DNA of 64,000 nucleotides from a virus (Duplodnaviria; Caudoviricetes), in IMG/VR virus record IMGVR_UViG_3300021255_000094, positions 2,896-66,895 of that record; one strand, written 5' to 3'. Positions 4,953 through 9,629 of this stretch are shown piece after piece; positions within the stretch are counted from its first letter, which is position 1; the number at the start of each line of letters is the position of its first letter. Under the pieces are notes generated by a model. The model was not told where the DNA came from. It saw only the letters and a program-made list of their open reading frames with translations, and did no database searches. Position numbers and translations under genes: made by a program.

Positions 4953-4984
4953 GTTTAAGATAAATGTTTACGAAAGGAGGTAAA

Positions 4985-5293
4985 ATGAAAATGAGTAATA
5001 AAAAGTTTAAAGCGATTGAGGTAGCACTTCTCTTAAATATTAGTGTGCCAACACTTAATAACTGGTATCTATTCAAGAGACAGAATCCGAATAACGAATA
5101 TGCACAGATGTTACCTGACCCAATTCAAGTTGCACCTAGACAGACTAGATATTGGGACGAAGCAGATATACCAAAACTGATAGAATTTAAGTCTAATATC
5201 GTTTGGGGTAGAAGCGGATTTATGGGTTCAGTAACACAGAAATATGCAAAGTATAAAAAGGAGAGAAACAATGAAACTCAGAAAACGAATTAA
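4985..5293 (+). CDS. HTH DNA-binding protein (MerR/excisionase-like)
   Basis: EVALLLNISVPTLNNWY HTH pattern; AAGGAGG RBS. Confidence 0.65.
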   Translation: MKMSNKKFKAIEVALLLNISVPTLNNWYLFKRQNPNNEYAQMLPDPIQVAPRQTRYWDEADIPKLIEFKSNIVWGRSGFMGSVTQKYAKYKKERNNETQKTN

Positions 5294-5471
5294 ACAGTAT
5301 GATTGGAAAAACTATATTATCTATTATTCATTCTATGGCATTATGATTGCTATTATATTGTGGGCTGTTTTAAGCTATCTCAATATAATAGCACATAATA
5401 GTGCTGGTGATATGACATATGAATATTGGAAGTATAATCTATGGACACTTTTATTTGATAGGAGGGGATAA
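5271..5471 (+). CDS. Small membrane protein
   Basis: Hydrophobic segment IIYYSFYGIMIAIILWAVLSYL; AAGGAG RBS. Confidence 0.65.
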   Translation: MKLRKRIKQYDWKNYIIYYSFYGIMIAIILWAVLSYLNIIAHNSAGDMTYEYWKYNLWTLLFDRRG

Positions 5472-5472
5472 A

Positions 5473-5886
5473 ATGGCAAGAGTAAAATTAGATGTAAGTG
5501 AAACACACACATTAGATAATCTTATTCCTGCATACGCTGAGAATAAAGCTATACTAGATGATTATAAAAAGATTTGTGATAAAGAGAATAAGCAGATTAA
5601 AGAGCTTATGACAGATGATACATATGAAGCTGGCGGTTATAAAGCTACAAAGTCTGTGCAAGTACGAGAAACTATGAATGAAGATAAGTTGTTAGAGTTG
5701 TTGATAGATAAAGGTTATAAAGATACAAAGGTTATAAAGCAGAAATATTATGTAGATATGGACGCTTTAGAATCAGCAATTTATAGTGGGCAGATACCTA
5801 AAGAGGATTTGTTAGCAATAGATAAGTGTAGAGAATCTAAAGAAGTAGTTACATTAAGAATAAGCAAAATAAAGGAGAATAAGTAA
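5473..5886 (+). CDS. Hypothetical protein
   Basis: ORF track 5419..5886; GGAGG RBS before ATG 5473. Confidence 0.75.
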   Translation: MARVKLDVSETHTLDNLIPAYAENKAILDDYKKICDKENKQIKELMTDDTYEAGGYKATKSVQVRETMNEDKLLELLIDKGYKDTKVIKQKYYVDMDALESAIYSGQIPKEDLLAIDKCRESKEVVTLRISKIKENK

Positions 5887-5887
5887 T

Positions 5888-6286
5888 ATGGATTATAAGA
5901 AATTATTTGATACGCCTATTGTAGAAGTAGATAATGAATTATATACAGACATACATCCAAAGTATTCATATACAACTACATACGACCCATTTCAAGCTGA
6001 GTTTTGTGGCTCTTTCAAAGTAGTAGATACAATAATGAAAAATATACATAGTGACTTTGAATATCAGTTTTATATAAAACCTTATTTTAATATTAAGAAA
6101 GTTATATTTAACAACCCAGCTACTATTGTATATTGGGAAGATGGCACAAAGACAGTAGTTAAATGTGGTAAAGATGATACATATAGTGAAGAAGCTGGAT
6201 TAGCTTTATGTTTTATGAAGAAAGCATTAGGTAACAAAGGTAACTATAACAATACATTTAAAAAGTATATAAAGGAGAATAAATAA
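5888..6286 (+). CDS. Conserved phage protein with IKKVIFNNPATIVYWEDGTKTVVKC domain
   Basis: Recognisable phage motif; RBS present. Confidence 0.75.
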   Translation: MDYKKLFDTPIVEVDNELYTDIHPKYSYTTTYDPFQAEFCGSFKVVDTIMKNIHSDFEYQFYIKPYFNIKKVIFNNPATIVYWEDGTKTVVKCGKDDTYSEEAGLALCFMKKALGNKGNYNNTFKKYIKENK

Positions 6287-6287
6287 T

Positions 6288-6488
6288 ATGGATAATAAAT
6301 CAAGCACCACTGCGAGTGGCGGTATAGGATTTGTAGGGTTATTAACAATAGTATTTATAGTGCTTAAACTTATAAAAGTTATAAAATGGTCTTGGTTATG
6401 GGTATTAAGTCCACTTTGGATAAGTGCTATTATAGGAGTGCTAATTACTGTATGTCTTATAGTTTTTTATAGGTGGTTAAGTAAATAA
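6288..6488 (+). CDS. Small two-TM membrane protein
   Basis: GIGFVGLLTIVFIVLKL...WSWLWVLSPLW motif common in phages. Confidence 0.8.
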   Translation: MDNKSSTTASGGIGFVGLLTIVFIVLKLIKVIKWSWLWVLSPLWISAIIGVLITVCLIVFYRWLSK

Positions 6489-6504
6489 AAGGGGGGTAGA
6501 AAAT

Positions 6505-6744
6505 ATGGCAAGAACAAAGAAGTATGAAAGCAAAGCAACTACAACAACTATTAAGATAAGCAGTAGAGCAAGTGTGGGTATTCAAAAGAGAAGTGCTACA
6601 AACTATTTCACAGTAGAATATACAGAAGAAAGAACTATTCCAGAAGATGCAGATATAGAAAAAGAGCGTCAGTTATTATGGGAGACTTGTAATAATGAAG
6701 TAGATACACAGATAATAGAAATAATGGAAGCAAATAAAAAATAA
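6505..6744 (+). CDS. Hypothetical protein
   Basis: ORF with G-rich RBS. Confidence 0.7.
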   Translation: MARTKKYESKATTTTIKISSRASVGIQKRSATNYFTVEYTEERTIPEDADIEKERQLLWETCNNEVDTQIIEIMEANKK

Positions 6745-6776
6745 TTGACAAACGTGTTACATAATGATATTATAAT
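6745..6776 (+). promoter_or_regulatory. Promoter of replication operon
   Basis: TTGACA(6745)-17 nt-TGnTATTAT(6768); TATAAT also at 6771. Confidence 0.7.
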
Positions 6777-6835
6777 AGTGTCTAGTGTTCGAGTTAAGGC
6801 ACTTGTTTGGAGGGTATTCGTATCTTCTAAAAATA

Positions 6836-6939
6836 GGTTAGCTGAGTTGTTGCGGAACTTAGCAATAAGAACCTCATAACGAAGCTAACCAATAGCTTAT
6901 ATGATTGATACCGCAACTATCTTTCGTATAAGCTATTTT
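6836..6939 (+). ncRNA. Structured 5' leader of replication initiator with kissing loops
   Basis: Hairpin GCTGAGTT/AACTTAGC with loop GTTGCGG; hairpin AATAGCTTATATGA/TCGTATAAGCTATT with apical loop CCGCAAC; the two loops are exactly complementary. Confidence 0.65.
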
Positions 6940-6958
6940 AATTTATAAGGAGAATAAA

Positions 6959-7720
6959 ATGGATTCAGATAATTATGTAGTAATACACGGATGGATGTGT
7001 AATGAATTAAATTTAAAGGGAAATGATTTATTAGTATATGCATATATTTTTAGTTATAGTAGAGATGGGCAAAATAAATGTTATAGTAATCTTGATACAA
7101 TAGCTAAAACATTTAATATATCTAAACCGACTGTGATTAAATCAATAAAAAATCTTGTAGACAGCGGATATATAATTAAGCATATACATAAAGATATAAC
7201 TAAAACGAATAGTTATGAACATAATGTTGACGTAGTAAAGAATCTTTACTCACGTAGTAAAGAATCTTTACCACAGCGTAGTAAAGAATCTTTACTCAAT
7301 AATAATATACTAATATCTAAAGATATTAGTAATAATAAAAATGATATAGATAATAAAGAGATAGAGTGGTTTTTGAAAAACTATCATAGTATATGTGTTA
7401 GTTTGCCTAAAGTAATGAAGCTATCAGAAAAGAGAAAGAAAGCTATACGAAAGATATTAGATAATTTTAGTAAGGATAATATCTTAGAGTGTTTTGAGTT
7501 AGCAGAGCAAAGTGATTTTCTAAAAGGTAATAATGATAGAGGCTGGAAAGCTGATATAGACTTCATACTTAGAGAAGATAAATTTATAAATATAGTAGAG
7601 GGCAAGTATGGAGGCAGAAAGAAAACTAGAAATACAGCTAACAGCATAGAGCATTTATATGAAGGATTAAATGAACGAGCAGATAAGAAAGGAGGTAACA
7701 ATGGAACAGCGAAATTCTGA
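6959..7720 (+). CDS. Phage replication initiator (N-terminal wHTH)
   Basis: YVVIHGWM...LKGNDLLVYAYI HTH region, GWKADIDFILRE C-terminal motif, internal iterons, precedes DnaC/DnaB-like genes. Confidence 0.85.
   Translation: MDSDNYVVIHGWMCNELNLKGNDLLVYAYIFSYSRDGQNKCYSNLDTIAKTFNISKPTVIKSIKNLVDSGYIIKHIHKDITKTNSYEHNVDVVKNLYSRSKESLPQRSKESLLNNNILISKDISNNKNDIDNKEIEWFLKNYHSICVSLPKVMKLSEKRKKAIRKILDNFSKDNILECFELAEQSDFLKGNNDRGWKADIDFILREDKFINIVEGKYGGRKKTRNTANSIEHLYEGLNERADKKGGNNGTAKF
7231..7295. repeat. Three iterons, probable replication origin
   Basis: CGTAGTAAAGAATCTTTAC at 7231, 7253 and 7277, each containing the palindrome GTAAAGA-A-TCTTTAC. Confidence 0.85.
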
Positions 7721-8360
7721 GTGCTGGTATTTAGATACTTGCGAAGATGATTGCAATAAGTGTGCAGTATTCTTTCAGATGAAATATCAAATGGAGAATA
7801 GTGGTTTACCTAAAGCAAAGCAAAGCCCAATAACTTTATATCTTACTGATGATAACAGTGGAGATAAAAAAGCATTTTATAGATTAGCTGAGATTAGAAA
7901 AGATATAGTTGATTTTGTAGAGCAAGGCAAGAATCTGTATATATGCAGTTCGTGGACTGGTAATGGTAAAACAAGCTGGGCAATTAAAATGTTACATACA
8001 TACTTTCACCACACAGCAGTTGGAAACTATGATAATCTTAAAGGTATGTTTGTATCAACCACAGAGCTATTATTACAGCTAAAAGATTTTAATAACCCAT
8101 TGTCTAAAGCATACATTGAAAAATTAAAGAATGTAGACTTAGTAATATGGGACGATATAGCAGTTAGTGGTATGTCGCAGTATGATTTTACTCAATTATA
8201 TACTATAATAGATAAGCGAATACTTGCTGAAAAATCTAACATATTTACATCTAATCAGCCAACAGTAGAAGGATTTGCAGAAGTTATGGGCAACAGATTA
8301 GCAAGTAGAATCTATTATACAAGCGAGATTATAGAACTAAAGGGAAAGGATATGAGATAG
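7701..8360 (+). CDS. DnaC/IstB-like helicase loader ATPase
   Basis: GNGKT Walker A, LVIWDD Walker B, R-x-x-SR arginine finger; N-terminal Cys cluster. Confidence 0.85.
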   Translation: MEQRNSECWYLDTCEDDCNKCAVFFQMKYQMENSGLPKAKQSPITLYLTDDNSGDKKAFYRLAEIRKDIVDFVEQGKNLYICSSWTGNGKTSWAIKMLHTYFHHTAVGNYDNLKGMFVSTTELLLQLKDFNNPLSKAYIEKLKNVDLVIWDDIAVSGMSQYDFTQLYTIIDKRILAEKSNIFTSNQPTVEGFAEVMGNRLASRIYYTSEIIELKGKDMR

Positions 8361-9629
8361 ATGGTAGCATTACAGATTTTATCACAAGTATTACAGACTA
8401 AAGATATATCTATCATAGAATCAAATCAACTCACAGCAGACTATTTTCCGGACTATCAAGATGAGTATGAATATATAGTTAATCATTATAAAGAATATGG
8501 TAATGTTCCTGACAAAGCTACATTCTTATCTGACTTTCAAGACTTTCAAATTATAGAGGTAAATGAAAGTGAATCTTATTTAGTTGATAAAATAAGGGAA
8601 GAATATCTATATTATAAATCAGTGCCAGTTGTTCAAAAAGTAGCAGAGCTTTTAAGAACAGACAGTAACGCCGCCGCGGAATATATGATAAATGCTATGA
8701 AAGATTTACAGCCTAACTATAAGCTAGGTGGAGTAGATATTATTCAGCAAGCTATGAATAGATATGAAGCATATATAGATAGACGAGACAATCAAGATAA
8801 CTGGTTTTTTACAACTGGCTTTCCGGAGCTTGATGATGTAATACACGGCATAAATAGAGCGGAAGAGTTGTTTGTAATCTTTGCAAGATTGAATCAAGGT
8901 AAATCTTGGGTACTTGAAAAGATATGTACTCACATATGGGAGATAGGTTTTAATGTTGGCTATATAAGTCCAGAAATGGGAGAGCTGAGTATAGGTTATA
9001 GATTTGATACACTACATAAAAACTTTAGTAATAATGGGCTTATGTGGGGAAAGAAAGATTTTGATGATAAGAGTTATGAGAAATATATAAAAGAGCTAGA
9101 GAATAAAACTAATAAATTTATGGTAGCTACACCGTTAGATTTTGATAATAAGATAACAGTAACAAAGCTAAAGCATTTCATAAAGCAATATAAACTAGAT
9201 ATATTAGCAATAGATGGTATAACATATCTTAGTGATGAAAGAGGTAAACGAAATGATAATAAAACAATTTCTCTTACCAACATAAGTGAAGATTTAAAGA
9301 CACTAGGTATGGAACTTAAAGTACCAATCTTAGTAGTAGTGCAAGCTAATAGAAGCGGAGTAGTAGATAAAGATAGTGATGATTTACCTGAGCTTGAATC
9401 AATTAGAGATAGTGATGGTATAGGTCATAATGCAACAATAGTATTAGCAGTAAAGCAAGGACCTGATGGTGTTATAACTTTGCAAGTAAAGAAGCAGAGA
9501 AATGGTAGAGTTGGTGACAAGATAAGTTATAACTGGAATCCAGACATAGGAGAGTTCATAAGTGAGAATGGCTCTATTGGCACTGATAGACCAAGAAAGA
9601 AGATAGTAGAGAAGGAGGACGTGTTCTAA
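8361..9629 (+). CDS. dnaB: DnaB-like replicative helicase
   Basis: ARLNQGKS Walker A, ILAIDGITY, VQANR, KQRNG motifs. Confidence 0.88.
   Translation: MVALQILSQVLQTKDISIIESNQLTADYFPDYQDEYEYIVNHYKEYGNVPDKATFLSDFQDFQIIEVNESESYLVDKIREEYLYYKSVPVVQKVAELLRTDSNAAAEYMINAMKDLQPNYKLGGVDIIQQAMNRYEAYIDRRDNQDNWFFTTGFPELDDVIHGINRAEELFVIFARLNQGKSWVLEKICTHIWEIGFNVGYISPEMGELSIGYRFDTLHKNFSNNGLMWGKKDFDDKSYEKYIKELENKTNKFMVATPLDFDNKITVTKLKHFIKQYKLDILAIDGITYLSDERGKRNDNKTISLTNISEDLKTLGMELKVPILVVVQANRSGVVDKDSDDLPELESIRDSDGIGHNATIVLAVKQGPDGVITLQVKKQRNGRVGDKISYNWNPDIGEFISENGSIGTDRPRKKIVEKEDVF

Follow-up and report, generated by a model that had tools for sequence, protein, structure and literature searches.

The DNA analysed here, referred to below as the window, is a stretch of 64,000 nucleotides that makes up most of a 66,895-bp (66.9-kb) virus record (G000). 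The record has direct terminal repeats and its genome is estimated to be complete; the DNA sequencing runs that contain the window are labelled gut or bovine gut metagenomes. No integrase or resolvase was detected in the record, neither a tyrosine integrase nor a serine recombinase, and since the genome is estimated complete, this is probably no temperate phage of the classical integrating kind. The subject of this work is the segment at 6745–6958, which consists of a promoter and a structured 5' leader of roughly 165–180 nt and which heads a replication operon of rep, a DnaC-like loader and DnaB. The genes on either side of the leader all lie on the + strand. The features of the segment and of the operon behind it are the following:

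6745–6773, + strand: sigma-70-type promoter TTGACA-17-TGaTATTAT, with 11 of 12 consensus matches and an extended −10 (TG)
6780–6831, + strand: variable 5' hairpins of the MFE fold, not conserved in sequence among relatives
6831–6838, + strand: invariant 5' motif AAAYAGGU, from alignments A1, A4 and A5 and from pair counts
6836–6848, + strand: shared 5' arm GGTTAGCTGAGTT, used by both alternative helices
6841–6848 with 6856–6863, + strand: hairpin 1 stem, GCTGAGTT with AACTTAGC (the proximal 3' arm), from constrained folds and covariation
6849–6855, + strand: loop 1 (L1) GTTGCGG, the apical loop of hairpin 1
6836–6843 with 6883–6890, + strand: competing helix, GGTTAGCT with AGCTAACC
6871–6878, + strand: junction motif ACCUCAUA, nearly invariant in the alignments (one member has ACCUUAUA)
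6878–6890, + strand: distal 3' arm AACGAAGCTAACC, partner of the shared 5' arm in the long helix P1
6891–6937, + strand: hairpin 2, with 14 bp, a 2x2 internal loop and 4 bp, at −19.1 kcal/mol
6911–6917, + strand: loop 2 (L2) CCGCAAC, the apical loop of hairpin 2 and a perfect complement of L1
6936–6946, + strand: U-rich tract TTTTAATTTAT, directly after hairpin 2
6947–6952 and 6959–6961, + strand: SD AAGGAG and rep ATG, with no conserved structure over either
6959–7720, + strand: rep, a replication initiator (HTH_36 / DnaD_N-like), the gene downstream of the leader
7671–8360, + strand: DnaC/IstB-like loader, next after rep
8361–9629, + strand: DnaB helicase, which follows the DnaC/IstB-like loader

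From this promoter a transcript is expected to start near 6780, and promoter-like hexamers were seen by eye at an equal distance in the loci L006–L010, L134, L111, L094, L047, L070, L113 and L087. A preliminary description of this DNA had placed a promoter at 6745 and, from there to the rep start, a leader without an open reading frame. This is borne out by the 11 of 12 promoter matches and by the rep ATG at 6959; the sole ORF listed in the leader (6745–6879, TTG start) begins within the promoter and would therefore not be transcribed from it. The leader is predicted to fold better than its own shuffles on the + strand (z = −5.2, with 0 of 200 shuffles as good), the minus strand folding less well (z = −3.0). 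A 15-codon ORF at 6901–6948 runs through the terminator hairpin described below, has no SD of its own and ends in a TAA that overlaps the rep SD. It was rejected as a leader peptide because it lacks an SD and is not conserved among the relatives, in many of which its ATG is missing, GTATAATTGG replacing GTATGATTGA. No second copy of the element was found within the window. The heptamer GTTGCGG or its complement occurs five times in the window against 1.2 expected, a number that 1 of 100 shuffles reaches; the extra copies at 1601, 10315 and 25354 were rejected as further partners, since they lie inside ORFs and have no hairpins.

The leader is not confined to this record. Rep homologs in IMG/VR carry a homologous leader, and four such leaders were used to make a covariance model, R1, which contains P1, hairpin 1 and the terminator and from which the loop–loop pairing was left out. 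R1 served to filter pattern scans of viral contigs, species-representative genomes and metagenome contigs; the first broad pattern scan gave mostly chance matches, about 12 being real among 115. In all, 46 distinct homologous leaders were obtained from viral, genome and metagenome contigs, and together they define the element as a structured RNA of about 165 nt before rep in a group of gut and rumen phages. The matches in the genome collection lie on contigs titled uncultured Lachnospiraceae and Ructibacterium. Among 151 genomes sampled from the family of G001 (the L151 genome, titled uncultured Lachnospiraceae) the element occurs in one, and that one is the seed genome.

A search of Rfam 15 with positions 6000–8000, on both strands and with E up to 10, gave no credible match on the leader; the sole matches that touch it, U54 at 6895–6974 and freshwater-2 at 6882–6961, score 18–19 bits against gathering thresholds of 40 and 49.9. 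The Rfam models for guanidine-IV/mepA, C4 and isrK/P4 CI do not match the leader either, and blastn of the leader against 50,697 phage records returned one 25-nt chance match only. No description of such an element was found in the literature searched. It is therefore well supported that this is a conserved RNA family absent from Rfam 15 and from that literature, and the earlier suggestion that the leader is possibly undescribed, for which a search of Rfam had been proposed, has held up.

The helix best supported by the comparison is hairpin 2, in which 15 of 18 pairs change on both sides. Across the relatives the corresponding hairpins have energies of −18 to −29 kcal/mol, and T-rich tails come after them; these tails were counted computationally and, where the fold had absorbed the tail and given a low count, checked by eye. 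The hairpin of the window has an AU-rich stem and an interruption in its U tract (TTTTAATTT), and a simple terminator scan did not flag it. Its end at 6937 lies 9 nt before the SD, close to the distance of about 10 nt given earlier, and the SD is left free and unpaired. Judged by its structure and its tail, hairpin 2 is a predicted intrinsic terminator upstream of rep. It is worth pointing out that G-U pairs are frequent in the stems, with UG found, for example, in 10 sequences at two terminator pairs; the folded strand is therefore the + strand, which is the sense strand for rep.

The wobble pairs also bear on the question of whether the element works as RNA at all. Covariation alone cannot separate RNA from single-stranded DNA, and the element could in principle be a set of protein-bound inverted repeats or the hairpins of a single-stranded-DNA origin. 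Inside rep, 290 nt downstream of the element, there are three direct 22-nt repeats (CGTAGTAAAGAATCTTTACTCA) at 7231–7298, which are spaced by 22 and 24 nt, contain a small palindrome each and are probably the iterons of a replication origin, as in lambda O. However, G-T wobble positions are common on the + strand only, and the element has a promoter in front, a U tract behind and an RBS immediately downstream. Moreover, its two 7-mers stand 55 nt apart in separate hairpins, unlike the half-sites of an operator. We find a DNA-level element hardly credible on this evidence. Read-through from the leader would carry transcription across the repeats.

The domain upstream of the terminator can be folded in two ways. 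In what we call state A, the shared 5' arm pairs with the proximal arm to give hairpin 1, on which L1 is displayed; in state B, which is the MFE fold, the same arm pairs with the distal arm to give the long P1 of 8–13 bp, in which L1 is partly hidden. The two helices use the same 5' nucleotides and are mutually exclusive. Both are backed by covariation: 7 of the 8 pairs of hairpin 1 and 5 of the 8 outer pairs of P1 change on both sides, and the inner P1 pairs (columns 20–24 with 72–82), which are absent from R1, covary too. The P1 helix is picked independently by RNAalifold, and the competing helix 6836/6883 of the preliminary description proves to be real. In most members, constrained folding lets AGGUN/N'ACCU close a bulged hairpin that shows L1 (state A). 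Covariation cannot test the AGGU/ACCU closing helix, because it is invariant.

For about two thirds of the leaders, the energy of state A together with the loop duplex comes to within 6 kcal/mol of that of state B, and the mean gap over all leaders, in which a few failed constrained folds are included, is 5.7 kcal/mol. In MFE folds of the growing chain, hairpin 1 is optimal first and P1 takes over 25–45 nt before L2 is made. There is a further detail of state B in the L010-type and long subfamilies, where the pyrimidine half of L1 pairs with the purine run after the motif (CUCCG/CGGAG, CUCCC/GGGAG, CUUCC/GGAAG and CAUCUUCC/GGAAGAUG). Because of this pairing, the hiding of L1 appears, from sequence, to be selected for. 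Two other pairings were considered and rejected: an anti-SD role of ACCUC, as the SDs of rep are not consistently complementary to it, and a pairing of the 5' AAAYA with the U tract, which shows no Y/R covariation.

Two segments, AAAYAGGU and ACCUCAUA, stay invariant while every helix around them covaries, and ACCUCAUA lies exactly at the branch point between the two folds; it may be where a factor binds or a tertiary contact forms. One could go further and regard the leader as a sensor similar to a riboswitch, in which the two segments, held by P1 and the loop contact, would form a binding site for a ligand or a protein, and occupancy of the site would select the fold and hence the fate of the terminator. 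The architecture does resemble that of guanidine-IV, and given that the Rep families differ, a conserved partner would have to be a host factor or a small molecule. However, each segment already serves two alternative pairings, the GGU of AAAYAGGU pairing with the ACC of the junction motif in state A and with the ACC at the end of the distal arm in state B, and this double duty could freeze the sequence by itself. No known aptamer in Rfam 15 matches, and the genes under control are replication proteins rather than metabolic genes or transporters. A sensor of this kind seems to us quite unlikely.

The two apical loops of the leader in the window, GTTGCGG (6849–6855) and CCGCAAC (6911–6917), are perfect complements, and these and the other positions of the preliminary description are all correct. 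It had proposed covariation of the loops in homologous leaders as a check, and the result is clear-cut: L1 and L2 form a perfect Watson-Crick complement of 6–9 nt in 46 of 46 distinct leaders, with about 23 types of loop pair among them. For each leader, the interior of the first domain was compared with the terminator apex for the longest stretch of perfect Watson-Crick complementarity, with no position preset; in the leaders examined the complement was located on both apical loops, that of the terminator (within 2 nt) and that of hairpin 1. The first 37 distinct leaders all have a complement of at least 6 nt between the L1 region and the terminator loop, with a mean of 6.8 against 3.8 for non-cognate pairs, and shuffled loops reach 6 nt in 5.4% of trials. 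Nine further leaders from metagenomes obey the same complementarity.

Three Watson-Crick solutions occur at one position (GTGCGG/CCGCAC, GTGCAG/CTGCAC and GTGCCG/CGGCAC), more distant pairs include GTGGTGG/CCACCAC, CCCCGACAT/ATGTCGGGG and CCTCCAA/TTGGAGG, and there are exact swaps of the two sides, GGGCAG/CTGCCC against CTGCCC/GGGCAG and CCGCTAC/GTAGCGG against GTAGCGG/CCGCTAC. In alignment A5, which was fitted to R1 and is thus blind to the kissing interaction, pairing in the seven loop columns reaches 86.8%, and changes on both sides occur in five of them. Compensatory changes across the 46 distinct leaders show that both predicted helices, the terminator and the L1–L2 pairing have been kept, and on this comparative evidence the leader structure and its loop–loop pairing are almost certainly real.

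Long-range loop pairing in the leader of a rep gene recalls the plasmids of the IncI/IncB group (ColIb-P9, pMU720), in which pairing of a hairpin loop in the repZ/repA leader is essential for rep expression. There, the loop pairs beside the RBS of rep and activates translation; this needs translation of a leader peptide and is opposed by the cis-encoded Inc antisense RNA. The preliminary description had invoked these plasmids. In a model of this type, L1 would pair with a site further downstream and thereby open the rep RBS or activate it, perhaps with an antisense RNA working against this. The model could draw on the loop-mediated pairing itself, on the end of hairpin 2 only 9 nt before the SD, and on a weak promoter-like site on the minus strand at 7001–6972 (9 of 12 matches, in the window only). 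However, L2 sits at the apex of a hairpin that is followed by a U tract, 30 nt before the SD, and the SD itself is free of conserved structure. A search of 75 nt upstream and 70 nt downstream gave no third covarying partner for L1 or L2; in the downstream part, which includes the RBS and the start codon, complementarity is 3.0–3.2 for cognate and 3.1–3.3 for non-cognate combinations. The only small ORF (6901–6948) needs an ATG that many relatives lack, and on the minus strand the many G-U pairs would become C-A mismatches. The element differs from IncI/IncB in the partner of L1, which is a terminator loop, and in lacking both a conserved leader ORF and any complementary sequence near the RBS. 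We consider translational activation of this type very unlikely. The earlier proposal of a cis-regulatory switch for phage replication survives in part: a conserved cis element does lie in the rep leader, and the mechanism proposed for it does not stand.

Since the partner of L1 is the loop of a terminator with a U tract, and the SD is free, transcription attenuation fits the anatomy better than activation of the IncI/IncB type. Our main reading is that the element is a bistable transcription attenuator in which the L1–L2 contact would modulate termination before rep, and we put its probability, on sequence comparison and predicted folds, at about 0.6. According to this model, hairpin 1 would form first during synthesis and display L1. 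If it were still present when L2 leaves the polymerase, L1 could capture the emerging L2, and the pairing would delay closure of the terminator, with read-through into rep as its most likely effect. If, on the other hand, the domain had refolded to P1, L1 would be hidden and the terminator would act. The balance might be tipped by the speed of the polymerase, by a factor at AAAYAGGU/ACCUCAUA or by leader RNA that acts in trans. The distal arm, once freed, may also pair with the 5' arm of the terminator in the window (6 bp, AAGCUA/UAGCUU) and in the long subfamily. This pairing was rejected as a universal antiterminator, since the remaining members do not show it clearly.

The direction of the effect calls for more caution. 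Two folds would be pointless if the terminator formed equally well in both, so the L1–L2 contact must be expected to change the behaviour of the terminator; and as the terminator hairpin is already strong, the simplest effect of the contact would be interference. However, a hairpin can stay intact while its loop is fully paired in a kissing contact, and the contact could instead stabilise the terminator or a compact fold. That kissing means read-through into rep is thus a tentative proposal, to which we would give somewhat less than an even chance. An effect of the opposite sign, a factor at the invariant motifs and action in trans are all possible. Whatever its sign, the design is unusual: a bistable domain displays or conceals a loop that has a single partner, the loop of the terminator that follows.

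Action in trans deserves a closer look, because the leader contains a loop together with the complement of that loop, and with a promoter and a terminator of its own it is expected to yield a free RNA of about 165 nt. One may imagine a form of dosage control in which the terminated leader is a stable small RNA that acts as its own antisense, kissing the nascent leaders of other genome copies, or of co-infecting relatives, with its loop 2 on their loop 1. The contact in trans would override the one within the molecule and shut off rep according to the copy number of the genome, and the loop pairs would define specificity or incompatibility groups, as they do in ColE1 RNA I/II, pT181 and P1/P7 c4 RNA. 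The tie to replication genes is what one sees in the copy-control RNAs of plasmids, and the roughly 23 loop pairs are orthogonal, the mean complementarity of non-cognate loops being only 3.8 nt. The leader of L004 has 92% of its backbone in common with that of the window but carries a different loop pair, AGTGCAG/CTGCACT; one loop pair also recurs on backbones that are only 52–72% identical. However, near-identical backbones mostly share their loops as well, so that the evidence for loops evolving faster than the backbone is ambiguous and does not demonstrate it. Two phages from one sample, L002 and L159, carry an identical loop pair, and the contact within one molecule should outcompete that between two unless it is timed. 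We hold this kind of control to be unlikely. If true, the leader would be a sensor of copy number made from a single sense RNA, with no countertranscript involved; an RNA that acts in trans would also offer a novel means of sensing genome dosage and of keeping related phages apart within one cell.

There are several known systems with which the proposed attenuator can be compared. In the guanidine-IV (mepA) riboswitch, a kissing loop with the loop of the terminator-forming region was proposed to favour read-through (PMC11611296). The likeness lies in this contact between a hairpin loop and the loop of a terminator-forming region. The loop nucleotides of guanidine-IV, however, are conserved and help to bind guanidine, whereas the loops of the present element are hypervariable and its invariant nucleotides are elsewhere; its genes are phage replication initiators, and the Rfam match is lacking. 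In pT181, pIP501 and pAMbeta1, the rep mRNA is attenuated by a separate countertranscript, an antisense RNA. Like the phage element, these are Gram-positive replicons whose rep leader has alternative folds, an intrinsic terminator and recognition initiated by kissing. They differ from it in that both of its loops are on the sense leader, an antisense promoter being only a weak match in the window. In their working, pT181-type attenuation and guanidine-IV are closer to the element than IncI/IncB is, and the element belongs to neither family.

The phage RNAs c4 of P1/P7 and CI of P4 are processed and act on sites downstream or upstream of themselves, blocking translation or causing termination. 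They, too, are regulatory RNAs that come from the leader of the operon they control, with short complementary segments that covary between phages; their Rfam models, as mentioned, do not match the leader. Classical prophage immunity in the P1/P7 c4 or P4 CI style is unlikely here, because the phage is without an integrase. Finally, ColE1 RNA I and RNA II form an antisense pair that acts on the folding of the primer, with loop sequences that define compatibility. The 7-nt loops that are fully paired in a kissing complex and the control of replication are common to both; the difference is that the phage element has both partners in one molecule, upstream of the gene of a protein initiator. Apart from a few model phages and plasmids, little is known of how the genes of phage replication initiators are controlled at the RNA level. 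In addition, the roughly 23 variants of the loop pair amount to a collection of natural compensatory mutants and offer orthogonal kissing pairs for RNA engineering.

The genes around the element tell something about what it belongs to. In every member locus the ORF behind the element is a replication initiator, and the protein families of these initiators differ (HTH_36/DnaD_N, Phage_rep_org_N, O-like, and DnaD-like or replisome organiser). The member loci fall into two groups, which were distinguished by neighbouring genes and not by a tree. The upstream ORFs at 6505–6744, 5419–5886 and 4964–5293 are conserved in about 25–27 of 36 member loci and have no match in nine element-bearing loci (L130, L111, L159, L163, L094, L047, L168, L169 and L171). 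Since the upstream neighbours differ between the two groups, the constant link of the element is to rep. The nearest of these ORFs, of 79 aa at 6505–6744, ends one base before the −35 hexamer and belongs to no Pfam or PHROG family; with 44–74% identity, it lies directly upstream of the RNA element in 27 of the 36 loci. The DnaC-like and DnaB genes stay homologous although the initiator family varies (L012, L094, L111, L130, L151, L166, L171 and others). The rep gene looks like a cassette that has been swapped behind a conserved RNA.

The nearest isolated phage is Clostridium phage phiCTP1 (L198, NC_014457.1, 26091–35371), whose DnaB is 35% identical. It has the same gene order of helicase, small ORFs, initiator, DnaC-like gene and DnaB; its initiator is preceded by a gap of only 93 nt, which holds a simple hairpin and does not match the RNA model. 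A last observation concerns the bovine-gut run X19, in which several short contigs begin at 6831–6835, at the conserved AAAUAGGU motif, and in which the summed depth is higher there (6831–6864). These contig starts are best explained as assembly breaks where several related, co-occurring phages share a segment, and not as transcript ends.
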